Shown in pieces: positions 44,748 to 60,723 of a stretch of 64,000 bases of DNA. The position numbers and the translations under genes are program-made. Every line of letters starts with the position of its first letter. Positions within the stretch are counted from its first letter, which is position 1. The notes under the pieces are model-generated. The model ran no database searches and had not been told where the DNA came from. It saw only the letters and a program-made list of their open reading frames with translations. Source of the DNA: Nitrospinales bacterium (GTDB lineage Bacteria; Nitrospinota; Nitrospinia; Nitrospinales; VA-1); assembly GCA_965223795.1 (NCBI GenBank), contig CBDCXL010000002.1:2368001-2432000 (forward strand). The letters are read 5' to 3'.

Positions 44748-45872
44748 TCAGCGCATGGGGATTTCGAAGCTGAAGGTCGACCCGGAGCCGACGGTGGTTT
44801 CCACCTCCATGCGGCCGTGGTGGGCTTCGATGACTTTCTTGGAGATGGCGAGTCCCAGGCCGGAACTGGGTTCACCGCCGGTGGATTTCGATTTCAGCTT
44901 TTGAAACAGCTTGAACAGCTTGGCGCGGTCTTGCGGATCGATTCCCGGCCCGAAGTCCTCGACGCTGACCTTGGCGTGCTTGCCAAAACGTTTCAGGCGG
45001 ACGTACACCGGATTGCCCGGAGCGGAAAACTTGATGGCGTTGCTCAGCAGGTTGTCCAGCACCTGCGTGATGCGTTCCGGGTCGAAGCCGAACTGCGGCA
45101 GGTCGTCCAGATCCGGGTGGATGGATATGTTCTTTTTGGCGGCGAAGGCGCGGTGGAATCCGGCTCTCTCTTCGATCAGGCGGGTGAGCGAACCCGCCTC
45201 GAATTTGAGTACCAGTTTTTCGTTTTCCAGAAGCGACGCGTCGAGGATGTCATCCAGCAGAAACAGCATGTTGTTGTTCGCCGTATGGATCATGGCGATG
45301 AACTTTTTCATGGTTTCCGCGTCGAGCTCGTCGAAGTCTTCCAGCAGAATTTCAGTGAGCCCGCGGATCGAGGTGATGGGGGAGCGCAGGTCGTGCGACG
45401 CCATGACCACGAACTGGTTCATCAATTCGTTGAGCTCGCTCAGTTTCCGGTTTTTCCCGCCGAGCGAATGAATGGTGTTTTTGAGATTGAGGTGGGTGCG
45501 GACGCGCGCGCGCACCTCGTCTTTGCGGAACGGTTGGATGATGTAGTCGGCGCCGCCGGCCTCGAACCCTTCGACGATGTTTTCCCCCTCCATTTTCGCG
45601 GTGATGAAAAGCACCGGAATATGCTTCTGCCCGCTGTCCTGCTTGATCTTCCGGCACAAGGCGTAGCCGCTGCCGGCGCGGAAACCGGTTTCCATCAGGA
45701 TCAGGTCCGGATCCAGATGGGCCATTTTTTCCATGAAATCCTGATCTTCGCCCACGGTCAGAACCGTATAGCCGTCCTGGGACAGCGCCTGTTGCAGTGT
45801 GCGCACGGTGTTTTCATCCTCACCGGCGATGAGGACGCGCATTTCCTCATTCTTTAAAACGGGAATCTCCAT
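44748..45872 (-). CDS. Hybrid receiver-histidine kinase with degenerate receiver
   Basis: ASHDLRSP, NLLSNAIKF, DFGPGI, GLGLAI. Receiver reads IAGED, LILME, IIQPF. Confidence 0.9.
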   Translation of the reverse strand: MEIPVLKNEEMRVLIAGEDENTVRTLQQALSQDGYTVLTVGEDQDFMEKMAHLDPDLILMETGFRAGSGYALCRKIKQDSGQKHIPVLFITAKMEGENIVEGFEAGGADYIIQPFRKDEVRARVRTHLNLKNTIHSLGGKNRKLSELNELMNQFVVMASHDLRSPITSIRGLTEILLEDFDELDAETMKKFIAMIHTANNNMLFLLDDILDASLLENEKLVLKFEAGSLTRLIEERAGFHRAFAAKKNISIHPDLDDLPQFGFDPERITQVLDNLLSNAIKFSAPGNPVYVRLKRFGKHAKVSVEDFGPGIDPQDRAKLFKLFQKLKSKSTGGEPSSGLGLAISKKVIEAHHGRMEVETTVGSGSTFSFEIPMR

Positions 45873-46214: not shown

Positions 46215-48128
46215 GTGTTGGACACAAAACCTCGGAGGGCACCGCGCGCAAAGGGTCGAGCGTCCTTTTGGATCGCCCGCTGCGTCGGGATCTGTGTTGC
46301 GATCCTGGCTCCGGTTTTCGCAGGCCCGGCATGGGCGCAGTCGAAAGTGTCCAAAGAGATCGCGCTTTCCGACTGGGGGCTCACGCACCCGTCGCAGATC
46401 GGTTTCATGTCGCTGGGCATTCTCAAGACAAAGAAAGGAGCCGAGATCATCGTTTACGACATCCGGGACAGCAAGCCGCGGTTCTCAGGTACAGGCGATT
46501 CCAAGGGAAGGGCGCCCGCGTTTTCGGGAGACGTGTTTCTCATCGGCCATTTTCATGAGGGCAACGTCAACCGGTTGGGCGGGTATTTCAACGGCTTCAA
46601 ACGGGCTCCCTCCACGGCATCGCTGGCCATCGACCCGGCTCCGGACGGAACCCCGGCGCTGACCTTTGGCTACCGCAACCGGCCGCCGGGCTTTTCCGGA
46701 TTCTGGGTGCACCTTTTTGACTTCAAACGGCCGCCCGCCGAGCGGGTGTTTCTCGACGCCACGCCGTTTGAATACCTGACCTTCGCCATCCGCGGGCACA
46801 CGGGAAGCGAGCGGTTGGATCTGCGCATGGCGGACCGGACCTGGGAAATGCGCGAGGATTCCGTCCGCATCGGCAGCATCGCCTCCTTTTTCGCACGGGA
46901 AACGCTGGGGCAGGACTGGCAGCGGGTCTGGGTGCCGCTTGAAAAGCTGCCCGCCTCCCTCAACCGCAGGGAGCTCGCCAGCCTGGTCTTTCAGGTGCCG
47001 GGGAAAGGGGAGGGGCGGGTGTACGTGAAGGACGTTGCCCTGACCCGCAAACGGGGCGTGCCGATTCCACAGGCTAAGGCCACGAATGTGCCGCGGCGGC
47101 TGCTGGCAAAAGCGATGTGGCTGTGGGAGACGAACAAGGTCGTGCAGAGCGAGGCGGAATTGACGGCGCTGATCGATTTCTGCAAACGCCACGCCATCAA
47201 CGAGCTGTTCGTGCAGATCCCCTATGAGGCGGAGCTTGAAAACGGGGCGTGGGTGATCGAATGGGATGCAACGCCGATGCGGCCTTTTCTGGCGCGGCTG
47301 CACCGTTCCGGCATCCGCGTTCATGCTCTGGACGGAGACCGCCGATATGCATTGAGGAAGTGGCATGGGCGGGTGCTCGGGCTGATCGACCGCGTCGTTC
47401 AGTACAACAAAAGCGTGATCCCCGAGGCCCGGTTCGCTGGAATCCGCTACGACAACGAGCCTTACCTGCTGCCGAGCTTCAGCGGCGTGCAGAAAGAGTC
47501 CATTCTGGGCCAGTATCTGGAACTGCTGGAGAACTCGCAGAACCGGGCGCGGCAGGGAGGGCTGGTGTTCGGGGTGGACATCCCGTTCTGGTTCGACGAT
47601 GTGAACGAGTTTTTCGAGCCCACCGCGATGGTGCGCGGCCGGCCGGTGAGCGAAGCGATCCTCGATATCGTGGACAACGTCGGCATCATGGACTACCGCA
47701 CCACGGCGTACGGGGCCGACGGGGTGATCGCGCATGGAATGAACGAACTGCGCTACGCGGAAAAGGCGGGCAAGAAAGTCTACATCGGGCTGGAAACGGT
47801 GTGGCTGCCGGATGAGACGATCTACGAATTCGGCAGCAAGGGCCGGGGTTCGAAAGTGCGCATCGAACCGCTGGATGCGGACCGGATGCGGCTCGACTGG
47901 ATTCCGGCGGGGGTGCCTGTGGCGGCGGGCGGCGGCAGGGTGCTGCATCAAAAGCGCGCGGTCAACGTGCCTTCGAGCAAGATCACCTTCGACCGCAAAA
48001 CGCCGGAAGACCTGGAAACGGTGCTGCGCCAGTCCGAAAGGGAGCTGCGCCGGTTCAGCAGTTTTCACGGTTTCGTCATCCACTCCTACGAAAGTTACCG
48101 ATCCTGGCTCGAAAGGGAACGCCGTTGA
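46215..48128 (+). CDS. Secreted protein: carbohydrate-binding-like beta domain plus glycoside-hydrolase-like TIM barrel
   Basis: Signal peptide (AWA-QS); YLTFAIRG...WQRVWVPL; AMWLW, GIRYDNEPY, GVDIPFW, IMDYR, IGLET, GFVIHSY. Confidence 0.6.
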   Translation: MLDTKPRRAPRAKGRASFWIARCVGICVAILAPVFAGPAWAQSKVSKEIALSDWGLTHPSQIGFMSLGILKTKKGAEIIVYDIRDSKPRFSGTGDSKGRAPAFSGDVFLIGHFHEGNVNRLGGYFNGFKRAPSTASLAIDPAPDGTPALTFGYRNRPPGFSGFWVHLFDFKRPPAERVFLDATPFEYLTFAIRGHTGSERLDLRMADRTWEMREDSVRIGSIASFFARETLGQDWQRVWVPLEKLPASLNRRELASLVFQVPGKGEGRVYVKDVALTRKRGVPIPQAKATNVPRRLLAKAMWLWETNKVVQSEAELTALIDFCKRHAINELFVQIPYEAELENGAWVIEWDATPMRPFLARLHRSGIRVHALDGDRRYALRKWHGRVLGLIDRVVQYNKSVIPEARFAGIRYDNEPYLLPSFSGVQKESILGQYLELLENSQNRARQGGLVFGVDIPFWFDDVNEFFEPTAMVRGRPVSEAILDIVDNVGIMDYRTTAYGADGVIAHGMNELRYAEKAGKKVYIGLETVWLPDETIYEFGSKGRGSKVRIEPLDADRMRLDWIPAGVPVAAGGGRVLHQKRAVNVPSSKITFDRKTPEDLETVLRQSERELRRFSSFHGFVIHSYESYRSWLERERR

Positions 48129-50071
48129 GCTTGAACGCGAAGGCAATCCGAACCGGTCTGGCATGGAGCGTGCTGCTGCTTGCGGGTTTTTTGCTCCTGG
48201 CGCCGCGGGCGCACGCGCTCGACCGCGAGGCGCAGATCCAGAAGGCGCGGCAGGCGGGCTGGCAGGGCGACCACGCGGGATCGGAGGCGCTGTACCGGGA
48301 GCTTTTGGATGAGAAACCGGACGACGTGGAAGCCTGGCTGGGGCTGGCGCAGGTGCTGAGCTGGCAGAAAAAATTCACCGAATCGGCGGAGATCTACCGC
48401 AAGGTGGACGGCATGCGTCCGGATCTGCCGGACGGACGCATCGGTCTTTTGCGGCTCAAAGCCTGGGATGGCAAGCACGCCGAGGCCGAGGCGGGACTTA
48501 AGAAACTACTTGAACAGTTTCCGGAACGGTTCGACATCCTGTCGCTGCTGGGGCAGGTCACCGCCTGGCAGAAGAAATTTCCCGAGAGCATCGGCTATTA
48601 CCAGAAACTGCTTGAACTGTACCCGGCGAACCCGGAAGCCCTCAAGGGGCTGGCGCGCACCTACAAATGGATGGAAAACACCGAGCAGGGCATCGCCATC
48701 AACAAGCAGATCCTGGAACAGGAGCCGGACAACCTGCAGGCCACGCTGGACACGGGAATCCTGTACAGTCAGGCCGGCGATTATGAGAACGCCATCGACT
48801 ATCTGGAACAGGCGCGCGAGCTGGCGCCGGAGCGCAAGGACATCCGCGCCATGCTGGGCACGCTGTACAGCTGGACGGAACGGCTCGACGACGCGGTGAC
48901 CGAGCTGCAGAAATCGCTGGCGCTGGAGCGCGGCGACATCGCGGGCTACATATCGCTGGGGCGGGTGTACAGCTGGCAGAAAAAAACCGAGGAGTCGATC
49001 CGCCTGTATGAGGAAGCGCTCAAGCTGGACCCGGAAAACACCGAGGCCCTGGTGGGGCTGGGCCGGACCTATCTGTTCAACGACCAGTGGGACCGCGCCG
49101 AGGAACAGTATCGCGAAGCGCTCAGGATCCGCCCGGACGACATCGACGCGCAGAACGCCCTCAAACGGCTGCAGGACATCAAGTCGCCGGAGGCGGTGGT
49201 GCGGTTCAATTTTTTCGAGTTCCGGGACCACGATCCCGAAGTGGACCGGCTGAGTTCGGTGGTCACCGAGTTTCGCGAAACGGCGGAGTATTTTCACAAG
49301 CTGTCGGCACAGACGAAACTGCAGCTGCGCTACCAGCGCTCCGACCTCAAGCAGGTGGACAAGATATTCAACGATACCGATTACAAGATCGACACCAACA
49401 CCGTGTCGCTGGGCGCGGAACACAAGCTGCCGGATAATTTCGGCATCCGGGCGCGCTACGACTACAGCCGCTTCGACAACGACGGCGACAATTTCTTCAA
49501 CCTCAAAGACCCGGAAAACGGCCATTCCGGCTACTTCATCCTGACAAAAGGCATCGGCAAGCATTACGCCAACGTCTCCTACGCGCGGGAGCTGTTCATC
49601 AGCACGGAAACGGGCGACGCGACGGTGGAGTCGATCGACCGCTACTCGCTGGCGCACGATTACGATTTCACCGAGCATTTTTCCTGGCTCACGGTGCTCG
49701 CCTGGAACGATTTTTCCACTTCGGGCGGCCTGCGCCAGGACTACCTCATCCGGCCGCGCTACCGCCTGCCGTTTTACGAGAACGTGCAGCTGGAATACCA
49801 GTTGCGCTACCTATCCAACCCGGATGAGTTTGAAAACAGCTTCATCGTCAACTTCCAGAACCAGATCATGGAGAAGCTGCGCTATGAGGTGGACTATGCG
49901 CTGACGTTCAACACGTTCGACGACGCACTGGAAAACCTGACGACGTTTTTCATTGCCTGGGACATTTCCGAATGCCTTTCCTTAAACGTGGACGCGCGCT
50001 TTTCCATCGAGGCGCTGGACGACCACGATATTTCCCAGAACTACCAGGCGTACCTGAGAATCCGCTTCTGA
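48125..50071 (+). CDS. TPR repeat + outer-membrane beta-barrel protein (polysaccharide export type)
   Basis: Signal peptide; about 9 TPR-like repeats (LAQVLSWQ, LGQVTAWQ, LGTLYSW, LGRVYSWQ); beta-rich C-terminal half ending YQAYLRIRF. Confidence 0.8.
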   Translation: MSLNAKAIRTGLAWSVLLLAGFLLLAPRAHALDREAQIQKARQAGWQGDHAGSEALYRELLDEKPDDVEAWLGLAQVLSWQKKFTESAEIYRKVDGMRPDLPDGRIGLLRLKAWDGKHAEAEAGLKKLLEQFPERFDILSLLGQVTAWQKKFPESIGYYQKLLELYPANPEALKGLARTYKWMENTEQGIAINKQILEQEPDNLQATLDTGILYSQAGDYENAIDYLEQARELAPERKDIRAMLGTLYSWTERLDDAVTELQKSLALERGDIAGYISLGRVYSWQKKTEESIRLYEEALKLDPENTEALVGLGRTYLFNDQWDRAEEQYREALRIRPDDIDAQNALKRLQDIKSPEAVVRFNFFEFRDHDPEVDRLSSVVTEFRETAEYFHKLSAQTKLQLRYQRSDLKQVDKIFNDTDYKIDTNTVSLGAEHKLPDNFGIRARYDYSRFDNDGDNFFNLKDPENGHSGYFILTKGIGKHYANVSYARELFISTETGDATVESIDRYSLAHDYDFTEHFSWLTVLAWNDFSTSGGLRQDYLIRPRYRLPFYENVQLEYQLRYLSNPDEFENSFIVNFQNQIMEKLRYEVDYALTFNTFDDALENLTTFFIAWDISECLSLNVDARFSIEALDDHDISQNYQAYLRIRF

Positions 50072-50976
50072 TGCCAAAAACGGCGGCCCGAAACATCCAG
50101 ACCGGACGAACGGGCTTGCGTTTCATCGTGTGTCTGTGGATGAGCTGGGTGCCGGTGGCCGGAGCGTTTGCGGGGGTCGAACTCGAACCCTTCGAACGGG
50201 CGGCGCTGGAATGCGGAACGGGCCTCGAATTTGCGCTTACCGGCGGCAGCCTCCTGGAAAACAAGCGCCTGAAGCAGGAAGGCCGGGCGGAATTGCAGCT
50301 GGCCGGCACTTTGCGCAAAGCCTATCTGTTGTGGTCGGGCGAGGTGAAAGGCGACGCCGGGGCGGCGGGACGGATCCGTTTCATCGCACCCGGTGGCAAG
50401 GCGCATGCGGTGCGGGCGGACAAATTGTGGCGGAAAAAATCGGCGGGGACCGTGTACGCCGCGATGGCGGAGGTGACGCAGTGGATCGAACGAAGCGGAC
50501 GCTACGGCGTGAAGGAACTCGCCGCCGACAATGTGAACCCGCAGGGCAAGGATCCGTACACGGTGGCGGGATGGGCGCTTGCGGCGATCGCGGAAAACCG
50601 GGCCGCGAAAAAAGCTTCCTGCGTACTGCTTCACTCGGGGCTGGAACTGCTGCGGCCGGGAGAGATCTATGACCTGGCACTGCCGCCTGGGGATTTGCCG
50701 GAAGGGAAATGGCATCTCACCCGGCTGGGCGTGGTGGGCGGGCACGGGCGCGCGGGCAACGGCTCGGGGAACCTGCTGGACGGCCGGGCGGTTTCCGGCG
50801 GCGACGACTGGGACGGCTCGGCGGGAAAATTCTGGGACATCGACGTGTTCGATCTGGAATCGCCGCTTGCGATTGGGAAGGAAGCCCCGCCCACGCTCAC
50901 GGTGGACCCGCTTTTGCAGTGGCTTTATCCTATTGCGGTGGTGCTGCGGCTGAATCCGTTCGAAAACGGCGGATGA
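50071..50976 (+). CDS. Secreted beta-rich hypothetical protein
   Basis: TGATG overlap; signal peptide; AYLLWSG, AEVTQWI, AGWAL, WDIDVFDL. Confidence 0.65.
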   Translation: MPKTAARNIQTGRTGLRFIVCLWMSWVPVAGAFAGVELEPFERAALECGTGLEFALTGGSLLENKRLKQEGRAELQLAGTLRKAYLLWSGEVKGDAGAAGRIRFIAPGGKAHAVRADKLWRKKSAGTVYAAMAEVTQWIERSGRYGVKELAADNVNPQGKDPYTVAGWALAAIAENRAAKKASCVLLHSGLELLRPGEIYDLALPPGDLPEGKWHLTRLGVVGGHGRAGNGSGNLLDGRAVSGGDDWDGSAGKFWDIDVFDLESPLAIGKEAPPTLTVDPLLQWLYPIAVVLRLNPFENGG

Positions 50977-51178: not shown

Positions 51179-51194
51179 TGGCCTGGCTTTTGCA
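51179..51194 (+). promoter_or_regulatory. sigma54 promoter upstream of the sorting-signal proteins
   Basis: TGGCCT-GGCTT-TTGCA, 35 nt before ATG 51230; RBS GGGAGG. Confidence 0.7.
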
Positions 51195-51229
51195 ATGTAA
51201 ATGTATAAGAAAAAGGGAGGCTCTATATC

Positions 51230-51544
51230 ATGAAAAAAACATGCAAAATCTCCTTAATTTGTTTTCTGGCGATCGGTTTTTTGGCTGTGGGATTCGGCCT
51301 GCCCGGAACTCCGGGAGTCGACGGGACCGTGTCGGTGGCGGAAGCGCACCATAGGCCCGGGCACGGAGGGGGACCCAAAGATGGCAAATGGTGCCGGAAG
51401 CATCCGGACAGGTGCAAGCCGCCCACGGTTTCCGAGCTTCCGGTTCATTATATGGTGGCCAGCGGGATCGCGGCGATTCTGATCACCGGCGGCATCGTCT
51501 ATCAGCTGCGCCGCCGCGAAGAAGAAAACGCATCATCTCTGTGA
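51230..51544 (+). CDS. Small secreted protein with C-terminal sorting signal (VSELP-TM-RRR), copy 1
   Basis: Signal peptide ending AEA; WCRKHPDRCKPPTVSELP; TM helix; RRREEEN. Confidence 0.85.
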   Translation: MKKTCKISLICFLAIGFLAVGFGLPGTPGVDGTVSVAEAHHRPGHGGGPKDGKWCRKHPDRCKPPTVSELPVHYMVASGIAAILITGGIVYQLRRREEENASSL

Positions 51545-51981
51545 GAGCCCAAAGCAGACCCATTGAGCTTCATTCAATGTGCCGAGAGGTGACAGTCCAT
51601 GATTAAAAAATTCAAATTTGGCCTCGTCATTCTGCTGATGTCCGGTTTTTTCGCATCCGGTCTTTTCATTCCCGGAAATGACGGCGGGTCTCTGGCCTAC
51701 GCGCAGAGGTCGGCGGACGACCGGGAAAAGCGGCGGGAGCTGCGCCGGGAGGAACGGCGCAAGCGCCAGGAAGCCAAAAAAGAAGCGCGAAAAAAGCGCC
51801 GGGAAGCCAGGAAGGAACGGAAAAAGCGCAAGCGTTGGTGCCGGAGAAATCCGGATAAGTGCAAACCGCCTACGGTTTCCGAGCTTCCGGTGCACACTAT
51901 GGTCGGCAGCGGCGTGGCCGCGATTTTGATCGCCGGCGGCGTCGTCTATCAGCTGCGCCGCCGCGAAGAAGAAAACGCTTC
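51389..51981 (+). repeat. ~146-bp direct repeat encoding the shared C-terminal tail (51389-51534 and 51836-51981)
   Basis: Shared blocks ACGGTTTCCGAGCTTCCGGT and GTCTATCAGCTGCGCCGCCGCGAAGAAGAAAACGC. Confidence 0.92.
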
Positions 51982-51991
51982 CAACCTATGA
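51599..51991 (+). CDS. Small secreted Arg/Lys-rich protein with the same sorting signal, copy 2
   Basis: Signal ending AYA; R/K/E helix; WCRRNPDKCKPPTVSELP; TM; RRREEEN; ATGA overlap with the exosortase gene. Confidence 0.85.
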   Translation: MIKKFKFGLVILLMSGFFASGLFIPGNDGGSLAYAQRSADDREKRRELRREERRKRQEAKKEARKKRREARKERKKRKRWCRRNPDKCKPPTVSELPVHTMVGSGVAAILIAGGVVYQLRRREEENASNL

Positions 51992-52815
51992 ACCTCTACC
52001 TCGCTCCTGTAATGCTGCTGGCGGCGGGGTTCGTCTACTATCAGCCCGCCCGCTGGCTGGTGGAAGCGTGGCAGGTGCATCCTTACTACCAGCACGGGTT
52101 GTGGGTGCTGAGCGGCTGTTTCGGCTACGCGGCGTTTGTCGCCGTGCGCTCGAAGCAGAACGAGCCGGTGCACGAAAAAACCTGGATGGCCTGGCTTGCG
52201 GCCAGCGCGCTGCTCTATGGCATCGGCTGGATGAGTGGCCTCAATTACCTCAAGACAGTGCCCCTCTTCCTGACGCTGCTCGCCGTTGCGTATCTGCTGG
52301 CGGACCGGCTGCCGGCACGGAGGCTGCGGTTTCCGCTGCTGTTTCCGATTCTGGCGGTGCCGATCCCGTTCATTGCGGAGATCACGTCCTTTCTGCAGTT
52401 CGCCATGGCGGGAATGTCGACGGGGTTTCTCCAGACTTTCGGGATGGACATCGAAGCGGAAGGCGCGATGATCTATCTGCCCGAAGCCACGTTTCTCATC
52501 GCGGAACCCTCCAGCGGCATCCAGTCGCTCATCGCGCTGACGACGCTGATGGTTCCGACGGTGTACTTCACACACACGACGCTGCGCAAAAAATTATTTC
52601 TGTACGCCGCGATCGTTCCGGTGGCGGTGTTCGTCAATTTTCTCCGGATCGTCACGCTGTTCGTCGTCGGCGATGTTTACGGCGAAGCCTTCGCGGACCG
52701 GTTCTGGCATGACACGGGCAACGTCGTGTACTTCGCGTTCGCGCTCACCCTGTTTTTCATCCTCTGGTATTCAACCGTCTATGGATTCAAATCGGCGAAA
52801 CCCAAACCGGCTTGA
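51988..52815 (+). CDS. Exosortase/archaeosortase family protein (catalytic Cys position is Ser)
   Basis: About 8 TM helices; W...PYYQHG; FPLLF...VPIP; IAEPSSGIQSL; NFLRI; FWHD. Confidence 0.85.
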   Translation: MNLYLAPVMLLAAGFVYYQPARWLVEAWQVHPYYQHGLWVLSGCFGYAAFVAVRSKQNEPVHEKTWMAWLAASALLYGIGWMSGLNYLKTVPLFLTLLAVAYLLADRLPARRLRFPLLFPILAVPIPFIAEITSFLQFAMAGMSTGFLQTFGMDIEAEGAMIYLPEATFLIAEPSSGIQSLIALTTLMVPTVYFTHTTLRKKLFLYAAIVPVAVFVNFLRIVTLFVVGDVYGEAFADRFWHDTGNVVYFAFALTLFFILWYSTVYGFKSAKPKPA

Positions 52816-54802
52816 GATCGGGCTCACCGGGGTTTTGTTTTTGATGTTTGCTGTGACCGTGCTTGCGGGCTGCGGCCCGGATGCGGCGCAACCCACCCGA
52901 CCCAGTGAACCCCCCGTTCCTTCTGCAAACCGCATTTACAAATTCACCTCGGACACATCGCATTATTTTTCCACCTCGCACGAGGGAAAATTCGTCGCCA
53001 GCTCGAATTTAGTGAGCGAAGCCAATCTGAACGGCATTCCGTTTGCGTTTTCCGGCTGGCAGGGCGAAGCGATCGCTTCGGACGATCCCAACATTCTCTA
53101 CCTGCGCTACTACGAAAACGCGGCGAAGGATGCGGGGCTTTATTTCGTGGCGGTGCACGGCACCAACGAAAGCCAGTTCCACACGCCGGAGGTCTGCTAC
53201 ATCGGCGAAGGCTGGAAAATCGAGGAGCGGGATTTTGCCACGTTCTCCCTGCGCGGCGAGCGCTTCGAAACCCGCTACGCGCTGGCCCGCAAGGACGATC
53301 TCGAACATCTCATCCTGTACTGGTACGTGTGGCCGGATTCGACGCGCAACATCACCGACGGCATGACCATGCTGCGCGTGTCGGTGCTGGTCGAAGACAC
53401 TCTGGAACAAGCGGAGCAGGCGGCGCTCGATTTCATCCGCAACCTTTCCTACCTGGATCTCAATGCGGAGGCCGAGCCTGCGATGGAGGTGCCGACGCCG
53501 GTGCTGCCGCAGGTGGCGCGCGCGCAACCGAAGCGGAAAAGCGAATGGTCCCCGTTTAAAGAACAGGCGCTGGCCTGGCTCAAGTCGCAGACCGTGCCGA
53601 ATGATATTGTGTCTCAACCGGTTCAGGAGCGGCGGCACCTGCTGATCAGCTACCGCGTGCCGGAGGATTCCGCCGACTACCCCTACGTGTTCAGCAAGGC
53701 GTCTTTGTACGACAACGCGCTGGCGATCCTCGCGTTTACAATGACGGGCGAGCACGCGCTGGCCGAGCGCGTCATCGAGGCGGCGTCGCGGCTGCTTTCG
53801 CCGGACGGCGATCTGTGGTTCAGCTTCAACACGCACAACGCCTGGCCGAACCGGCGCGATCATTCCGGCGCCATCATCCGCAGCGGCGCGTCCGCCTGGC
53901 TTGGGTACGCGATCGTGCATCACCTGAAAACCCGGCTGGTGGACAATGCCGGATTTCTGAAACAGGATCAGAACGCGATGGTGCATCTGAAAACGGCGAT
54001 GAAAATCGCCGACCGGGTTCTCAGCCGGCAGGTGCTGGATACGGCCGACCCGCGCTATGGCATGATCACCGGCGGCGAGGGCAGCTACTCCTACCGCTGG
54101 AACGAGAAGGCACAGCGTGTGGAAGAATTTTTCAAGCCGGGGCCCGTCGCGTGGGCGAGCGTCGAGCACAACATCGACATCTTCTTTTTCCTGCGCGACC
54201 TGGGGCGGATTTCCGGAAACGAAAAATACCAAACCGCGGCAGAGCGGCTTGAGCGTGCGCTGGTCAAGACGGCCTGGAACCCTGAGATCGGTCAGCTCAA
54301 CCGCGGTCAGCGGCAGGACGGTCCCGACCCGGTTCTGGCGCTCGACTGCGCTTCCTGGGGAGCCATGTTCCTGGCGGCGGTGGGGGAGGATCAGAAAGCG
54401 GAAACTGCACTTGCATCGAGCCGGAAATTTTTCCTGCGCTCCGGAAACAAAAGCGGCCACAAGCCCTACCGCGATCTTTTGCTGTATGAGGATGCCGAGA
54501 TCAACGCGCTGTTTTTTCCCGATGAGCCTGCGAAAAACTGGGACGCCATGCCGCTGATCTGGCCTGAAGGCACGCTGGGTGTGGCGATGGCGCATCTCAA
54601 GCTCGGTCAAAAACCACAGGCGAAAGCGCTGATCGAAGCGATGCTCGACCTGCAGGATGACACGGGCGCTCTGCCTTACGCGACCGAAGATCTGCGCTAC
54701 CAGTTTTCCACCAACCCCTCCGTCGCGGGCACGGCCTGGCTGGTCATGACGGTCGCGGCGTACGAGCAGGAGCGGGTGCGGGATCTGTTCTGGGAACGCT
54801 GA
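52781..54802 (+). CDS. Lipoprotein: EpsI domain fused to a six-hairpin glycosidase-like domain
   Basis: Lipobox VLAGC; EpsI motif HTPEVCYIGEGW and LYWY; helical domain with YDNALA, SVEHNID, LDCASW, WPEGT, SVAGTAW. Confidence 0.7.
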   Translation: MDSNRRNPNRLEIGLTGVLFLMFAVTVLAGCGPDAAQPTRPSEPPVPSANRIYKFTSDTSHYFSTSHEGKFVASSNLVSEANLNGIPFAFSGWQGEAIASDDPNILYLRYYENAAKDAGLYFVAVHGTNESQFHTPEVCYIGEGWKIEERDFATFSLRGERFETRYALARKDDLEHLILYWYVWPDSTRNITDGMTMLRVSVLVEDTLEQAEQAALDFIRNLSYLDLNAEAEPAMEVPTPVLPQVARAQPKRKSEWSPFKEQALAWLKSQTVPNDIVSQPVQERRHLLISYRVPEDSADYPYVFSKASLYDNALAILAFTMTGEHALAERVIEAASRLLSPDGDLWFSFNTHNAWPNRRDHSGAIIRSGASAWLGYAIVHHLKTRLVDNAGFLKQDQNAMVHLKTAMKIADRVLSRQVLDTADPRYGMITGGEGSYSYRWNEKAQRVEEFFKPGPVAWASVEHNIDIFFFLRDLGRISGNEKYQTAAERLERALVKTAWNPEIGQLNRGQRQDGPDPVLALDCASWGAMFLAAVGEDQKAETALASSRKFFLRSGNKSGHKPYRDLLLYEDAEINALFFPDEPAKNWDAMPLIWPEGTLGVAMAHLKLGQKPQAKALIEAMLDLQDDTGALPYATEDLRYQFSTNPSVAGTAWLVMTVAAYEQERVRDLFWER

Positions 54803-54805
54803 GTC

Positions 54806-56230
54806 TCAACCCTGCTTGAAATTCCTGCGGTCCATCCGGCCCCAGCCGCCTTTTTTTCCGCTCGCGTACTGGATGATTCCCACCAGCCGCCACCAGGTTG
54901 TGAGCGGTCGGTAGAAAAACACTTCGATGAGAGACAGGCTGATGAGGCTGACGATTTCGGAGAGTCCTGAGTAGCGTCGGAACGTCAGCTCTTCAAAGAT
55001 GATCGCACCGATCGAGAGCAGGATGTTCAGGGCGATGGTGGCGAGCAGGAACAGCACCGCGAGCGGCGGGTCCACCAGGTTGAAAAAGAGACTGAGCAGA
55101 AAAATAAAGAAGCCGGCAAATTCGATCAGCGGCCCGAACCCCTCCACGAACAGAAAAAACGGAAATCCCAAAAGTCCTACGGCGCCGTATTTTGGGTTGA
55201 GCAGCATTTTCCGGTTGCTCAACAGGCTTTCCAGCAGTCCGCGCTGCCAGCGGGTCCGCTGCTTGCTGAGGTCCGGCAGGTTTTCGGGGCTTTGCGTCCA
55301 GCAGACGGGATCGGGGATGAACACGATGTTGTAGGGCAGCTTTTTGTCCTGCAGATACATGTGCATGCGCACCACCAGTTCCATGTCCTCACCGATGGTG
55401 TTCACCCGGTATCCGCCGCATTGAATCACCGCGTCTTTTCTGAAAATGCCGAAGGCTCCGGAGATGATGATCAGGCTTTTGAACGCGGAGAACGCCATGC
55501 GGCCCGCCAGAAACGCGCGCAGGTATTCCATGATCTGAAATTTCGCCAGTATGTTTTTGGGAAGGCCGACTTCGATGACCCTGCCGTTTTTGATCTTGCA
55601 GCCGTTGGCGATGCGCACCGATCCGCCGGCGGCGACGGTGGTGTGGTCTTCGATGAAGGGACGCACGATTTTCAACAGCACGTCCGGCTCCAGGATCGAA
55701 TCGGCGTCGATCGAACAGATGAGCGGGTATTGCGAGGCGTTGATTCCCGCGTTCAGGGAATCCGCCTTGCCGCCGTTTTCCTTGTCGAGAACGATCAGGT
55801 TGGAATGGGTGTGCGATTCATAAATGCCGCGAATGTCCCGGCAGGGCAGCCGTTTGCGGAACACGTTTTTCGTTTTCTGCAACTGAAACGCATTTTTGAG
55901 TTCTTCCAGCGTGCCGTCCGTCGAGCCGTCGTTGATCAGAACGATTTCAAAGGCGCTGTAATGCAGCTGCAGAATGGATTTGATGCTTTCCACGATGGTT
56001 TTTTCTTCGTTGTACGCGGGAACCAGCAGGGAGATGGGCTTGGCGAAGGGAGAGTGGATGACGTTTTTCAATTCCAGCGATTGAATGTGGCGCAGGTATT
56101 TCTTCACCGCGGAATAGGAGATGAACAGCATCAGAATGTAGCTGGTATTGATGAATATAAAATAGAAGGTGATGAAGAGATTGTGCGCGTTGATCACCGG
56201 CAGCATTGAATTCAATACGGAGATTTCCAT
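54806..56230 (-). CDS. Processive family 2 glycosyltransferase (PgaC/IcaA-like synthase)
   Basis: PAYNEE, NDGSTD, GGKADSLN, DADS, GED, QRTRW; TM helices at both ends. Confidence 0.92.
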   Translation of the reverse strand: MEISVLNSMLPVINAHNLFITFYFIFINTSYILMLFISYSAVKKYLRHIQSLELKNVIHSPFAKPISLLVPAYNEEKTIVESIKSILQLHYSAFEIVLINDGSTDGTLEELKNAFQLQKTKNVFRKRLPCRDIRGIYESHTHSNLIVLDKENGGKADSLNAGINASQYPLICSIDADSILEPDVLLKIVRPFIEDHTTVAAGGSVRIANGCKIKNGRVIEVGLPKNILAKFQIMEYLRAFLAGRMAFSAFKSLIIISGAFGIFRKDAVIQCGGYRVNTIGEDMELVVRMHMYLQDKKLPYNIVFIPDPVCWTQSPENLPDLSKQRTRWQRGLLESLLSNRKMLLNPKYGAVGLLGFPFFLFVEGFGPLIEFAGFFIFLLSLFFNLVDPPLAVLFLLATIALNILLSIGAIIFEELTFRRYSGLSEIVSLISLSLIEVFFYRPLTTWWRLVGIIQYASGKKGGWGRMDRRNFKQG

Positions 56231-56233
56231 CGT

Positions 56234-57397
56234 TCAGGCGGGCTTGGATAAAAATTGATCGATGATGTCTTTCGCGAACGGATCTTCGGTCTTCCCGTGC
56301 AGGTCGTTGAGACACTTCCGGCCGGCTTCCCCCATTTCGAACAGCGATGAAGCGGCGTAGTACCGGCACCACCAGTCCCTGTCTTCGATGAGACTGGCGA
56401 TCGGCTTGATGATGTTGGGATCTTTGAGCGAGCCGAGCGCCTTCACCGCCTGCGCGCGGATGATGGGGTTTTCATCCTTGAGGTTATCCTTGAGAACGGG
56501 GATCGCCTCCTCCACACCCAGATGGCCGAGTGCCTTGATGATGTGGATTTTCTCTTCCTTGTCCTGGGAGTGCTTGAGCAGGCTGATCAACAGGGTCGCG
56601 CCTTCTATGATTTTGAAGTAACCGATGAAGTCGATGATCTTGAGCCGGGCCCGCGACGGGTAGCTCAACAGGTTCAGTTCTTCCAGGGTGTCCCGGTTGA
56701 TCGGTTCGCCGTAGCCCACGATCACTTCAGAAAAAAGCTCTTCGGAAAGCGCTTCCATCTTTAAAAGAAAGACGATGACGTCTTTCAGGATTTTTTTATT
56801 GCCCAGGCGCATCAGGGCCGCGGCGGCGTTGAGCAGGACGGTGGTGTTCTTATCCTGGATCGCCTCCATCAGGTCTTCCGTGGCTTCGGCGGCCTTGGCG
56901 ATCCCCAGCCTGTGCGCCGCGATAGACCGCCGCCAATCCTGCGGGGCATGGAGAAGCAGGTGGCGTTCCCGGTCCAGCATGCCCATTTTTCTAAGAACAT
57001 CCACGAACTTGCTGAAATAGTCTCCCCTGGTGTCTCGCAGATAGGGCGAGATGAACTCCCAGAAATTCTCGTGATCGTCCGGCGTGACGATTTTTTGAAA
57101 TTCGGTGAAAGAGATTTCCTGTTCCATGAGCGGAAACAGGCGGTGTTCCCATTCTTTGAAACGCTGGTTCTTGCGTTTTTCCCGAATTCCGAACTTGATG
57201 TGCGTGAAGATGATGTAGATCAACAGGAACAGGGTGACGGCGATCAGCAGGAATACCGACAGGATGGCGAGCGCCAGCACCGGCTTTTCCAGAAACAGAC
57301 CCGGAAAGGGAACCAGGCCGAGGTCTTCAAGGAATTGCAGGAACGAAATTTCGATTCCGCTGTGGTCGAGCGCTGCCCAATCCCTGGGAAGAGTCAT
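56234..57397 (-). CDS. Membrane-anchored HEAT-repeat protein
   Basis: N-terminal TM; HEAT/PBS repeats (IIKALGHLG, RAQAVKALG, WWCRYYAA). Confidence 0.85.
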   Translation of the reverse strand: MTLPRDWAALDHSGIEISFLQFLEDLGLVPFPGLFLEKPVLALAILSVFLLIAVTLFLLIYIIFTHIKFGIREKRKNQRFKEWEHRLFPLMEQEISFTEFQKIVTPDDHENFWEFISPYLRDTRGDYFSKFVDVLRKMGMLDRERHLLLHAPQDWRRSIAAHRLGIAKAAEATEDLMEAIQDKNTTVLLNAAAALMRLGNKKILKDVIVFLLKMEALSEELFSEVIVGYGEPINRDTLEELNLLSYPSRARLKIIDFIGYFKIIEGATLLISLLKHSQDKEEKIHIIKALGHLGVEEAIPVLKDNLKDENPIIRAQAVKALGSLKDPNIIKPIASLIEDRDWWCRYYAASSLFEMGEAGRKCLNDLHGKTEDPFAKDIIDQFLSKPA

Positions 57398-57431: not shown

Positions 57432-57914
57432 TCACAACAGATCGCTGAAATCCTCTTCACCCAGAGCGGAGCGTTTTCCTTTTGTGGGATAGACAAAACC
57501 TTTTACGGCGGCAGGCGGGGGGGTTTTGATGTTTTCTTTCTGCGCCATTCTGCGTTTGAGCACCTTGTTCACCCGCAGGATGAGTTCCTCGGGGCTGAAC
57601 GGTTTTTTGATGTAGTCGGTGGCGCCCAGTTCCAGCCCCTTCAAGACATCTTTTTCCTGCGATTTGGAGGACAGCATGATCACGGGGATTTGCTTCAGCT
57701 CCGGATCGCTTTTGATCTCCTGCAGGATCTGCAGTCCGTTCACGTAGGGGACCAGAACGTCGGAGATCACCAGGTCGGGGGATTCCTCGCGCACCAGGAC
57801 CTGCGCTTCCAACCCGTCCTCGGCACGGATGAGCTCGTGCCCTTCCTTGCTGAGCTTATAGTCGATCACGCTCCAGATATGATTTTCGTCTTCAATTACG
57901 AGGATTTTTGCCAT
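57432..57914 (-). CDS. Single-domain response regulator
   Basis: VIEDE, VISDV, MLSS, KKPF; no output domain. Confidence 0.9.
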   Translation of the reverse strand: MAKILVIEDENHIWSVIDYKLSKEGHELIRAEDGLEAQVLVREESPDLVISDVLVPYVNGLQILQEIKSDPELKQIPVIMLSSKSQEKDVLKGLELGATDYIKKPFSPEELILRVNKVLKRRMAQKENIKTPPPAAVKGFVYPTKGKRSALGEEDFSDLL

Positions 57915-58104: not shown

Positions 58105-60657
58105 TCAGGGCTCCGCGGGCACCAGCTCCCTTTCCGGTTCGGCATTGCGCCGGGGCTTGGAACCGGGTTTTGGCGTTTTCCCGCTTTCGGCGAAGATGCC
58201 TTTGTGTTCGAAGTCTTCAAAGACCTGTTCGTGAAGATGCCGCGGCACCGGGGTCTTGCTGAAGCGGATGCGCTTCATGATGTGGAAAATGCAAACGCCC
58301 AGAATTCCGGCCGGCGGGAGAAAGATCCAGCCGATGGGGTCGCCGAACACCAGCTTGGTCATGCCCACGATCAGCAGGATGCCCGCCAGCGAGGTGATCA
58401 AAGCGCAGGTCAGCCTTTTAACGGGAAACACGATGTGGTGCCGTTCGTGCTTGAAGAATTTCACTTCTTCGGGCCACCAGCCGAAGGGCAGGGCGCGGGC
58501 GTAAAAGCGGCGGCGCACCTCCGGCGGCTCGGGGTCGGTCCGGAGCGTGACAAGAATCCAGAACGGCAGCACGGTGAAAACGCTGATCACCAGGCGGAAG
58601 GATTCTTCTTCAAGGTACCAGCTGTCGCCGAGGAAATGATCGAACAGATAATGGTAGAGCTTGATCCCGTGGGTCAGCTCGACATCGAACAGCGTCTGCC
58701 GGGACCACAGCCAGGCGGCGGCCGCGTCGAGCGGGCCGAACCCGTGCAGGACGACGTACATGATCAGCGAACCGATCAGCGCGGTGAGGATCGAGTAGCT
58801 GTTGATGCGCCAGTGCCAGAACATCAGGACGGTGGGGATGCCCGCTCCCGCCAGCAGTTCGATGGCCAGCTCCCAGCCCGTCAGCAGGCTGTCCACATGC
58901 GTGACGTAATAGAGCAAGAGAAGGATCAGCCCGGCGATCGCCAGTTTTCCGACCAGGAACTCTTCCCAGGCGGACGGTTTTTTCCGGCGCACCGCCGACC
59001 ACAGCTCGACGATGTAGGAGCCGCCGTGGAACAGCTGGCTGGTCATGGTGGACAGGTACGCGCCGAACGCCACCGAAACGAAGGCGCCGCCGAAAAACCC
59101 GCCGCCCAGCAGCAGAAACCCGGTGATGGCCACGCCCGCCTCGCCGTTCAGGTGCACGCCGTACAAATAGATCGAGGGCACCAGAAACAGCGAGGCGACC
59201 CCCAGCACCGTCCAGGGATGGTGGCGCACCGCGAAGGAAAAGGTGGAATGGAACAGCCCGGCGCCCACTGCGTGGAATTCGTTCTTGCAGTCCTTGAGAC
59301 GCTGCGCGGCGTAGCCGCCGATGTACGAGCCGATCAATGGCTGCAGGCCGAGCAGGACCAGAAGCCCGACGACGGAGTAAAAGATCTCGTTGACGAACGG
59401 GTAGTGCAGCATGAGGCTGCCCATCGTGTCCGGGTGCGTCACGCGCTGGCCGGTGAGAAAGGCGCAGATTTCGGTCTTGTCGATCCTGTTGCGGTCGAGC
59501 AATCGGATGTAGTCGTCCAGTTCGCTGATGCGGCGCGGCGGAAACAGGTTTTCATCCAGCAGTCCCGCGGTTTGCAGCTGTTTCAGGGTTTCCGGGTTTT
59601 TGAAACGGTGCGCCTGCGGGATGAATTTCTGCCGCCACAGTATGTAGAACGGATCGCCGGTGTCGCCGTCCACGGCGTCGAGCACCGCCTGCCGGCTCAG
59701 TCCGGTGATGCCGGGCGCAAACAGATACTGGTTCGGCAGGTGCGCGGTTTCCAGCAGAATCTTTTCACGCAGCAGGGCATCGGGGCGCGATGCGTTGTGC
59801 GTGAAAAAGGATTTGTCCACCTTTACGAGAGAATTGCGCACGGTGCCGCTGGCGAGCGACGCCTCCCCCCTGGTCACGGTTCCCTTGACGCCGTTGTCGT
59901 CCCAGATGTGGACCATGGCGCCGAAGAACAGCGCCGCGGCCAGTACGATCTGGACGTTGTCCGCCAGCACCATGCCGCGGAATCCGGAAAACAGGCTGAA
60001 CACCATAACGGGAAACAGCATGATGAAAAACACGAACGGGCCCGGCGCGAAGGTGAGGACGGCGTCATCCGGATAAGCCTGACCGTGCGGCAGAAAATGC
60101 GGCAGGAAGTCCAGCCCGGAAAAGGTGAAGTACACGCCCGAAATGTTGAAGCCGAGCAGGAACACCATCACCATCGCCTTGGACACGGTGCCCATGACGG
60201 CGTTGTTGCGCACGAGGATCTCGATCAGGCTCTGCGTCACCATGAGGATCTTGGCGCGCCGGCCGGAAAAGCGCAGCAGCGGCAGCGCGGCGTCGGCGTA
60301 CAAGCGCAGCCGCACCCAGATCTCGGCGTAGAGAAAGGTGCCGAGCGAAAAGGCGATGAGACCGCTCTGCCAGAACCAGTTCCAGCCCACGCCGCCTTTG
60401 GAGCGGATGAAATCGCCCACGACGAACGGCGTGTCGCTGGCGAACATGGTGGCGATGATGCCGCCGCCGGCGACGAACCAGGTGAAGCGCTTGCCTTCTT
60501 CCGCGACCGAGTAGGTCTGCTTCTTGGTTTTCTCGTCGGTGCGCCAGCGGTAATAGGCGTAGCCCATCAGGAGAATCACAAAGCAGACGAAGGTCCACTG
60601 CCCGGCCGGGTTCAGGTAGACATCGCGCTCTGGAAGTGGGGCCTGAATCGGATTCAT
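58105..60657 (-). CDS. Sodium:solute symporter family protein with large soluble insertion
   Basis: ATMFASDTP, WNWFW, GGYAAQRL, AYLST..SQL..GGSY, WHWRIN. Confidence 0.82.
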   Translation of the reverse strand: MNPIQAPLPERDVYLNPAGQWTFVCFVILLMGYAYYRWRTDEKTKKQTYSVAEEGKRFTWFVAGGGIIATMFASDTPFVVGDFIRSKGGVGWNWFWQSGLIAFSLGTFLYAEIWVRLRLYADAALPLLRFSGRRAKILMVTQSLIEILVRNNAVMGTVSKAMVMVFLLGFNISGVYFTFSGLDFLPHFLPHGQAYPDDAVLTFAPGPFVFFIMLFPVMVFSLFSGFRGMVLADNVQIVLAAALFFGAMVHIWDDNGVKGTVTRGEASLASGTVRNSLVKVDKSFFTHNASRPDALLREKILLETAHLPNQYLFAPGITGLSRQAVLDAVDGDTGDPFYILWRQKFIPQAHRFKNPETLKQLQTAGLLDENLFPPRRISELDDYIRLLDRNRIDKTEICAFLTGQRVTHPDTMGSLMLHYPFVNEIFYSVVGLLVLLGLQPLIGSYIGGYAAQRLKDCKNEFHAVGAGLFHSTFSFAVRHHPWTVLGVASLFLVPSIYLYGVHLNGEAGVAITGFLLLGGGFFGGAFVSVAFGAYLSTMTSQLFHGGSYIVELWSAVRRKKPSAWEEFLVGKLAIAGLILLLLYYVTHVDSLLTGWELAIELLAGAGIPTVLMFWHWRINSYSILTALIGSLIMYVVLHGFGPLDAAAAWLWSRQTLFDVELTHGIKLYHYLFDHFLGDSWYLEEESFRLVISVFTVLPFWILVTLRTDPEPPEVRRRFYARALPFGWWPEEVKFFKHERHHIVFPVKRLTCALITSLAGILLIVGMTKLVFGDPIGWIFLPPAGILGVCIFHIMKRIRFSKTPVPRHLHEQVFEDFEHKGIFAESGKTPKPGSKPRRNAEPERELVPAEP

Positions 60658-60723
60658 GCTGCCTCAACAGTAGGGTTGAATCGGGTGTCCGTTGCTTTGC
60701 ATGCACGGCATGGCGCGCGCGCT

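Follow-up and report, generated by a model that had tools for sequence, protein, structure and literature searches.

The DNA analyzed here (the window) is a stretch of 64,000 nucleotides from a Nitrospinales bacterium of the phylum Nitrospinota (GenBank assembly GCA_965223795.1, contig CBDCXL010000002.1, positions 2,368,001 to 2,432,000). Within it, two small open reading frames (ORFs), ORF A and ORF B, lie in tandem on the + strand and are followed by a gene for an exosortase-family membrane protein and by a gene for a lipoprotein with an EpsI domain (Table 1). The two ORFs encode small proteins, here called mini-substrates A and B, which carry nearly the same C-terminal tail. Tail and enzyme probably form a dedicated protein-sorting pair of the exosortase kind, belonging to an unnamed Nitrospinota subtype, with dedicated cationic mini-substrates in an exopolysaccharide system. 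The genes had been singled out in a preliminary description of this DNA, and its claims are taken up where results bear on them.

Mini-Substrates and Their Shared Tail

The C-termini encoded by ORF A and ORF B follow the same order, namely WC(RKH/RRN)PD(R/K)CKPPTVSELPVH, a hydrophobic stretch, and YQLRRREEENAS. In both proteins PPTVSELP leads into a transmembrane helix and then into an RRR cluster, with A ending in RRREEEN. The preliminary description had reported two adjacent small ORFs with almost identical tails and unrelated N-termini. The first part was confirmed, as the tails share 82% protein identity over 49 residues and 121 of 147 bases at the DNA level. The codons of the two tails show 12 synonymous and 9 non-synonymous differences, which indicates that their likeness is kept by selection and is not that of a fresh copy; a recent duplication as the source of the tail identity was ruled out by the 12 synonymous differences in 49 codons. 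The second part did not stand. The signal peptides of A and B align, with M1, K3, K6, L9, L13, G16, F17, A19, G21, P25 and G26 invariant, and the two ORFs are therefore paralogues which differ only in their middle parts.

A hydropathy scan revealed only two hydrophobic segments per mini-protein, which in A span residues ~3-27 and 70-94. Both N-terminal segments are first basic, then hydrophobic, and the N-terminus is not a lipobox; the presence of a cleavable signal peptide was judged by eye, without a predictor. In mini-substrate A, the signal peptide has a ..VSVAEA end and is followed by a His/Gly-rich cationic stretch containing C-x6-C. The middle of mini-substrate B is strongly basic and composed of K, R and E, with 29 K+R vs 11 D+E. 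An orthologue of B (P0003) was found in a congener, genome G001.

Relation of the Tail to Known Sorting Signals

The tails were scored with the sorting-signal models of NCBIfam release 20.0 at curated cut-offs, and with Pfam in parallel. By sequence and hydropathy profile, the two proteins have the architecture of PEP-CTERM-type substrates, which consists of a motif abutting a transmembrane helix, a basic cluster at the C-terminus and an N-terminal signal peptide, the last judged by eye. No NCBIfam sorting-signal model reached its cut-off on the window tails, the best being LPXTG_anchor with 11.7 and 8.5 bits vs 15.9, and Pfam likewise gave no sorting-signal family for the two tails. The PEP-CTERM model (TIGR02595) matched neither window protein; TVSELP keeps the Glu but is without P-E-P. 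When 21 members of the tail family were scored against the signal models, weak LPXTG_anchor hits appeared in 8, the best at E 0.03, and a PEP_CTERM hit in a single one, at E 0.16. The absence of any match above cut-off to the CTERM hidden Markov models bears out the proposal of the preliminary description that the VSELP tail is an unrecognized variant signal.

The tail is also highly specific. In its own genome, where six-frame translation gives 50,986 ORFs of 40 amino acids (aa) or more, a regular expression and a profile located it in A and B only. A profile built from seven tails was then run at E <= 0.001 over 1.84 billion representative proteins of any length. It returned 21 hits, 17 of which are tiny proteins of 91-131 aa, the window's two included, and no large cargo protein with the tail was found by this profile among the representatives. 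The large hits P0010, P0021 and P0023 were set aside as repeat proteins after inspection, and P0020 (2610 aa, matched in 7 partial stretches) was excluded on the strength of the hit table alone.

Members of the family share a common build. Their signal peptide ends in ..VS[VI]AEA and is followed by a short, variable, low-complexity and mostly cationic middle, often with C-x4-6-C, which is of the HH.PGH, K/R/Q-rich, G/N-rich or PKPPK type. The motif PPTV[S/A]E[L/F/V]P[IV].YM then stands against a helix with a GG pair, and a basic cluster follows. PPTVAELP variants occur in two genomes. Conservation within the mini-substrates peaks at the motif beside the helix. Chance or a non-coding artefact as an explanation for the small ORFs was ruled out by the conservation of the motif in lineages whose exosortases are 47-60% identical.

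The Exosortase and Its Serine

The tail genes and the enzyme genes are tightly packed. The stop codon of ORF B (TGA, 51989-51991) overlaps the ATG of the exosortase gene (51988) as ATGA, and the exosortase stop (52813-52815) in turn overlaps the EpsI-domain gene by 35 nucleotides (nt) if ATG 52781 is its start. Both overlaps had been claimed before, and both were found again, at 51988-51991 and with ATG 52781, respectively. The ATG 52781 start and the lipobox that follows it are conserved in 8/8 orthologues.

The enzyme belongs to the exosortase superfamily, as it scores 149.2 bits with PF09721 (cut-off 25.7) and 59.4 with TIGR04178 (cut-off 23); with TIGR02602 (8TM_EpsH) it reaches 100.1, just under the cut-off of 105.55. 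No named subtype cut-off was reached among XrtA, B, C, D, H, J, N, O, T, U, V and W, the cyanoexosortases and the archaeosortases. The best subtype scores were 115 vs 313 for XrtV and 109 vs 208 for XrtA, with XrtD at 74.9 vs 400 and XrtC at 44 vs 300. The remaining two exosortases of the genome served as a positive control, and the same models typed them as XrtO with 322 bits and XrtT with 626 bits, each against a cut-off of 250.

In PEP-CTERM exosortases, the Cys of the C-x-G motif is invariant, lies at the centre of the strongest conservation and is the proposed nucleophile (PMC1569441). The same author later described a "nearly perfect conservation" of Cys, Arg and His (Haft 2023 preprint), and in the archaeosortase ArtA, Cys173, Arg214 and Arg253 were critical by mutagenesis (PMC9263693). 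In the window enzyme this Cys position is occupied by Ser175. A Ser was found here in 19/19 locus copies of the clade, vs CSG in 5/5 other exosortases aligned from the same and related genomes. A survey of exosortases within Nitrospinota gave 31 signature matches, of which the 10 with Ser all belong to this clade and the 21 with Cys comprise all others. Among 5.8 billion proteins, [EA]PSSGIQSL was present in all 66 clusters (90% identity) matching the signature region; N[LF][LM]RI, the N-x-x-R motif, was present in 64 of these and FWH[DN] in 65. In an alignment of 29 sequences (A7), Ser175, Asn217, Arg220 and His241 do not vary. Moreover, the Ser codon is TCG, TCC or TCA among 17 distinct locus copies, and these three synonymous codons indicate that the Ser is held by selection. 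The spacing after the His also sets the clade apart, being H-x-x-G vs H-x-x-x-G in the paralogues. Judged by these motifs, the enzyme is an exosortase homologue, but not a canonical cysteine-type exosortase. Literature searches on exosortases found no description of a serine-type exosortase or of this system.

The two other exosortases of the genome are encoded outside the window, at ~467,234-468,007 (L002) and 560,038-560,808 (L003) of contig C1 of G000, and occur as fused forms of 508 and 524 aa. The XrtO and XrtT genes each lie within a few kb of a gene for a large PEP-CTERM-type protein, one of 813 aa (26.1 bits) and one of 1062 aa (14.3 bits, below cut-off). Three separate sorting systems are thus found in one 3.9-Mb genome.

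Linkage of Tail and Enzyme

The association of tail and exosortase was followed from both sides. From the tail side, 6 loci were obtained in a species-genome collection (9 pattern matches, 6 confirmed) and 14 in metagenome contigs (53 matches, 14 confirmed). An exosortase orthologue directly follows the tail gene in 18/20 of these loci; in the remaining two, the contig stops no more than 40 nt from the tail gene. A conserved gene of ~300 aa precedes the tail gene in 18/20 loci, and here the other two contigs begin inside the tail gene. From the enzyme side, orthologues were defined at E <= 1e-80, with the next-best exosortases at ~1e-11. Such orthologues were found in 10/120 genomes of the phylum and in 3/30 genera; in nine of the ten, the exosortase gene is immediately preceded by one to three tail genes, and the contig of the tenth ends inside the exosortase gene. 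The preliminary description had assigned VSELP its own cognate exosortase, and the linkage of homologues in 18/20 tail loci and 9/9 assessable enzyme loci agrees with that assignment. The loci of G001, G031, G040, G057 and G058 were reached by both routes and the genomes are kin, so these counts show consistency and do not represent independent events.

The number of tail genes per locus varies from one to three. At the multi-gene loci (L024/L048 of G058 and L025/L044 of G057) the middles of neighboring mini-substrates differ, being Cys-rich, Gly/Lys-rich or Lys/Arg/Gln-rich. These varied middles suggest a small set of functionally distinct mini-substrates.

The six genome records with the tail are metagenome-assembled genomes (MAGs) of Nitrospinaceae or Nitrospinales, bar one labelled Nitrospirota (L027). 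This record was ruled out as evidence of a second phylum, as the genome grouping appears to place the Nitrospirota-labelled MAG within the phylum of the window. No exosortase orthologue was found in this 1.8-Mb MAG, whose contig ends at the tail gene. On that 4145-bp contig, a gene for a family-2 glycosyltransferase (GT2) lies directly before the TPR gene and the 637-aa gene is missing. As far as the profile scores and genome distribution tell, tag and enzyme are a new exosortase variant which is restricted to some Nitrospinota and fits no named subtype or curated signal.

The EpsI-Domain Lipoprotein

The partner encoded downstream of the exosortase passed the cut-off of the EpsI family in Pfam (PF11984, 53.5 bits, cut-off 26.1) and remained under that of TIGR02914 (36 vs 42.8); it was far under the cut-offs of the typed EpsI models (V, B). 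Its 370-residue C-terminal domain matched no sequence family in Pfam, NCBIfam or a PDB sequence search, in which the EpsI protein gave one hit only, at E 0.42. In an AlphaFold model, this domain forms an (alpha/alpha)6 barrel. The mean predicted local distance difference test (pLDDT) score of the model is 63.6, with values of 80-95 over much of the C-terminal part. Foldseek matched the domain to GH94 phosphorylases, dextran dextrinase, MmpH (7qsj_B, TM-target 0.70), GH100, GH63, GH15 and GH116. These matches range from E 2e-9 to 5e-6 at 8-14% identity and, with the mean pLDDT of the model, are to be read at the level of the fold only. Leads from the atlas agree with an unannotated alpha/alpha toroid family. 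In the predicted structure, the EpsI partner is thus a lipoprotein fused to an (alpha/alpha)6 glycosidase-like domain.

An 864-aa protein with a catalytic domain of the GH94 superfamily (112 bits) is encoded on the - strand at 60724-63318. Its gene is also near the locus in G001 and G037. With it, the neighborhood of the EpsI-toroid fusion holds another alpha/alpha barrel of a glycan-phosphorylase-like type.

Upstream Genes, Neighborhood and Promoter

Three genes for a secreted 637-aa protein, a TPR protein and a secreted 301-aa protein stand upstream of the tail genes, and the same order is kept in relatives, with the 637-aa gene absent in L027. The start of the 301-aa gene overlaps the stop of the TPR/porin gene as TGATG. 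The model of the 301-aa protein (pLDDT 76.3) gave only generic CBM/jelly-roll matches (Foldseek TM <0.3; VIA best Z 7.9). The protein belongs to no Pfam or NCBIfam family, and these matches point to no specific fold relative, which does not make its fold new. The TPR protein has PrsT-, PgaA- and BcsC-like repeats and scores 127.6 bits with PrsT and 82.3 with PgaA, both below cut-off. By inference, it may be an outer-membrane export porin like PgaA or BcsC; its beta-barrel is suggested by the sequence end only. For the 637-aa protein, the atlas led to CBM30, GHL10, GH10, GH26 and GH17 clusters, and a TIM-barrel like that of clan GH-A is a lead only.

Table 1. Features of the locus; positions are counted from the first letter of the window.
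Feature	Position	Strand	Details
Secreted 637-aa protein	46215..48128	+	CBM30 24.8 bits, below cut-off 27
TPR protein	48125..50071	+	TPR families at residues ~36-360; C-terminal ..RIRF
Secreted protein, two beta-sandwich domains	50071..50976	+	301 aa; directly upstream of tail gene(s)
Sigma-54-type -24/-12 promoter-like site	51179..51194	+	TGGCCTGGCTTTTGCA; ~35 nt upstream of ORF A start
Mini-substrate A (ORF A)	51230..51544	+	104 aa
Mini-substrate B (ORF B)	51599..51991	+	130 aa; paralogue of A, same tail
Exosortase-family membrane protein	51988..52815	+	275 aa; unnamed clade
Ser175 codon at canonical catalytic Cys position	52510..52512	+	Motif EPSSGIQSL vs CSG
N-x-x-R motif NFLR, Asn217..Arg220	52636..52647	+	Conserved family Arg; motif definition from PMC1569441
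His241 codon (FWHD)	52708..52710	+	Conserved family His
EpsI-domain lipoprotein	52781..54802	+	673 aa; lipobox LAGC; EpsI/DUF3485 at ~80-220; predicted (alpha/alpha)6 glycosidase-like domain at ~300-673
Family-2 processive glycosyltransferase (GT2), PgaC/IcaA-like	54806..56230	-	Glycos_transf_2 93.7 bits
HEAT-repeat protein	56234..57397	-	HEAT_2 96.5 bits; beside GT2 in G001 and G037
Single-domain response regulator	57432..57914	-	Response_reg 90.3 bits; conserved in G001 and G037

The GT2 scores 148.1 bits with PgaC_IcaA (cut-off 422.3) and 118.1 with the XrtG-associated glycosyltransferase model (cut-off 363.95). Its gene is found directly upstream of the cassette and on the same strand in L024, L025, L027, L030 and G037. 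In the window it is inverted and lies downstream of the cassette, together with the HEAT-repeat and response-regulator genes. A GT2 orthologue is present in 10/120 genomes of the phylum, eight of which also have the exosortase. The exosortase without the GT2 was found in two genomes (72% and 83% complete), and the GT2 without the exosortase in two others (97% and 70% complete). One stop codon was flagged inside each of the GT2 matches in G037, G057, G058 and G003.

Further observations concern the flanks. The gene immediately upstream of the cassette (44748-45872, - strand, 374 aa) encodes a hybrid response-regulator/histidine-kinase; it is found with 76% identity at the same place in G001 and is not present there in other lineages. 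On the other side, a 937-aa ORF (58204-61017, + strand) has no Pfam family and a third-position GC content of 0.59 vs ~0.75 in its neighbors, and it shares part of its length with the GH94 gene, which is read from the opposite strand. Its matches in G001 are three separate ORFs, and the frame may be fused, broken or in part spurious.

Upstream of ORF A, the site TGGCCTGGCTTTTGCA agrees with the sigma-54 consensus at 9/11 positions. In the congener G001, the same spot has TGGCCCGGACCTTGCA, which agrees at 10/11 and falls within a conserved island, the rest of the 250-nt spacer having diverged, and rpoN is present in the genome. Expression in this genus is probably driven by a sigma-54 promoter. 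The preliminary description had placed the whole operon behind such a promoter; this holds for the genus of the window, where the site is kept in one congener, and fails for other lineages, where the site is absent. It is plausible, on this comparison of upstream regions, that the promoter is a genus-level feature and not part of the system definition. Sigma-54 sites before PEP-CTERM genes have been described (PMC1569441).

Comparison With Known Systems

The closest parallel is the PEP-CTERM/EpsH (XrtA) system (PMC1569441), in which a homologous multi-pass PF09721 enzyme occurs with an EpsI partner. It also shares the tripartite signal and the exopolysaccharide locus and, in the genus of the window, the sigma-54-type site before the substrate gene. 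In contrast, the motif is PPTV[S/A]E[L/F/V]P and not PEP, with no TIGR02595 match. The one to three substrates are all tiny and adjacent to the enzyme gene, compared with a median of eight substrates per genome for PEP-CTERM (PMC1569441). Moreover, the nucleophile position holds Ser, unlike the invariant Cys in the C-x-G of PEP-CTERM exosortases (PMC1569441). The pairing of one exosortase subfamily with a private flavor of C-terminal signal resembles XrtC (VPDSG-CTERM) and XrtD (VPLPA-CTERM). The present enzyme differs from XrtC, XrtD and XrtV in that its scores with these subtypes are far below the cut-offs, its tail matches no curated signal model and its nucleophile position is occupied by Ser.

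ArtA with the PGF-CTERM signal of Haloferax volcanii (PMC9263693) belongs to the same superfamily and also acts on a tripartite signal, and its critical Cys and Arg frame the role expected of Ser175 and Arg220. Unlike the present system, which is known from sequence only, ArtA is archaeal, uses Cys173 and processes a large S-layer cargo that is then attached to lipid. Rhombosortase with GlyGly-CTERM (PMC3237569; Haft 2023 preprint) is likewise a membrane-embedded sorting protease with a serine nucleophile and a tripartite C-terminal signal; it has an unrelated rhomboid fold, whereas the serine described here sits within an exosortase scaffold.

The remaining genes resemble those of Pga (poly-beta-1,6-GlcNAc) and other synthase-dependent systems, given a GT2 nearest to PgaC/IcaA among the NCBIfam models and, in the TPR protein, repeats like those of PgaA and BcsC. 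A locus with a periplasmic glycosidase-like protein is a further likeness by lead only. Unlike in Pga, the scores remain below the equivalog cut-offs (PgaC_IcaA 148.1 vs 422.3; PgaA 82.3 vs 366.65). No deacetylase or PgaD family was found among 11 ORFs scanned against Pfam and 6 scanned against NCBIfam. By analogy, the locus may work like a synthase-dependent exopolysaccharide system.

Proposed Mechanism and Alternative Explanations

In the proposed mechanism, the mini-proteins would be exported by Sec and then anchored by their C-terminal helix. The exosortase would recognize PPTVSELP at the outer face of the inner membrane, and Ser175 would attack the motif, assisted by His241 and Arg220. 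The helix would be removed, and the short, strongly cationic peptide would be handed to an acceptor of the exopolysaccharide or outer-envelope machinery. A complex prediction of the exosortase with the tail lends this weak support, with a score of 0.38 vs 0.00 for the best of three controls, a contact agreement of at least 63% among runs and a partner pLDDT of at least 67. The mark used for this score was reached by 116/157 solved complexes and 2/215 mismatched pairs. Among those at the mark, values of at most 0.60 were obtained for 18/157 solved complexes and for both passing mismatches.

Several observations weigh against a dedicated sorting pair that works in this way. Cleavage, acceptor and Ser catalysis are inferred, as is everything beyond co-occurrence, and the complex score of 0.38 falls in the weak range. 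The canonical nucleophile is missing, and the enzyme could be inactive or work differently. The distance of ~15 residues from the hydrophobic core to the conserved ..VSVAEA after it is large for a signal-peptidase site, and the cleavable signal peptide is a call made by eye. The compared genomes are kin and their counts are not independent. The promoter-like site agrees at only 9/11 positions, while 358 sites of at least 9/11 occur on both strands of the 3.92-Mb genome, and it was absent in 11/13 orthologous upstream regions scanned; in many of these 13 regions the tail gene begins only tens of bases after the preceding gene. With regard to the exopolysaccharide setting, the beta-barrel of the porin and the TIM-barrel of the 637-aa protein are leads and not results, the GT2 is unlinked to the cassette (elsewhere in the genome) in G031 and G040, and the near-complete genome G003 has the GT2 without the exosortase.

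The missing Cys also gives rise to an alternative in which the enzyme is a pseudo-enzyme or scaffold. It would cleave nothing and would bind the tails of mini-proteins that remain uncut in the inner membrane, where they would act as single-pass or hairpin subunits of the machine for polysaccharide synthesis and export, or as its regulators. No member of the clade retains the Cys, and Cys173 of ArtA is critical (PMC9263693). Moreover, the mini-proteins have exactly two hydrophobic segments with a very short middle and are never attached to a larger cargo domain. A dead site, however, would not be expected to keep its Ser through synonymous changes together with an invariant Arg220 and His241. 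Ser is a competent nucleophile in many protease families, and the peak of conservation beside the helix is that of cleaved signals. Such a scaffold is therefore considered unlikely. Another possibility accepts cleavage and dispenses with the acceptor, so that a hydrolase only cuts the anchor. The small cationic peptides freed in this way, into the medium or the periplasm, might for instance glue the matrix, bind metals or act as antimicrobials. The variable, low-complexity, cationic or His-rich middles would suit such a role, and one-step transpeptidation by any exosortase or archaeosortase is unsettled (Haft 2023 preprint). Coupling to polysaccharide is instead suggested by the obligatory EpsI partner, fused to a glycan-type domain, and by the position of the unit within an export cassette. 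Release alone is held to be rather unlikely.

It is highly improbable that the small ORFs merely share an operon with an exosortase whose true substrates are encoded elsewhere. The genome does contain PEP-CTERM-type proteins, but their genes adjoin those of XrtT and XrtO. Furthermore, the tail and the clade co-occur without exception wherever this can be assessed, and the tail is built in three parts like known sorting signals and is carried by no other protein of the genome.

The dedicated sorting pair can also be extended to a defined chemistry, which is put forward as a distinctly speculative and rather improbable proposal. The Ser-type enzyme would form an acyl-ester intermediate with the mini-protein, and the (alpha/alpha)6 domain of the EpsI partner would hold the nascent glycan. 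Under the guidance of this partner, the cationic peptide would then be moved onto the PgaC-like exopolysaccharide or another envelope glycan, and would supply positive charge where the scanned ORFs gave no deacetylase. The product would be a peptide-polysaccharide conjugate. If true, no acceptor of a bacterial exosortase would have been defined earlier, and the system would be a minimal one of a single enzyme and one to three 100-residue substrates.

Implications

The Cys-to-Ser change, the additional glycosidase-like domain of the EpsI protein and the conservation of the upstream genes go beyond what the preliminary description contained. The acceptors of exosortases and their action as one-step transpeptidases are unsettled (Haft 2023 preprint). 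The locus offers an unusually small test system: besides a single enzyme and its EpsI partner, it has just one to three neighboring substrates of ~100 residues. The mature parts of these substrates comprise only some 25-60 residues, and they are therefore suited to intact-mass analysis. The selected, clade-wide change from Cys to Ser, in which Arg and His are kept, amounts to a natural experiment on the proposed catalytic triad. The fusion of EpsI to a glycosidase-like domain, as predicted, is a physical hint that sorting may be coupled to polysaccharide handling. Nitrospinota are important marine nitrite oxidizers. For this phylum, an unannotated signal and exosortase subtype make curated models possible, which would better the annotation of its genomes.

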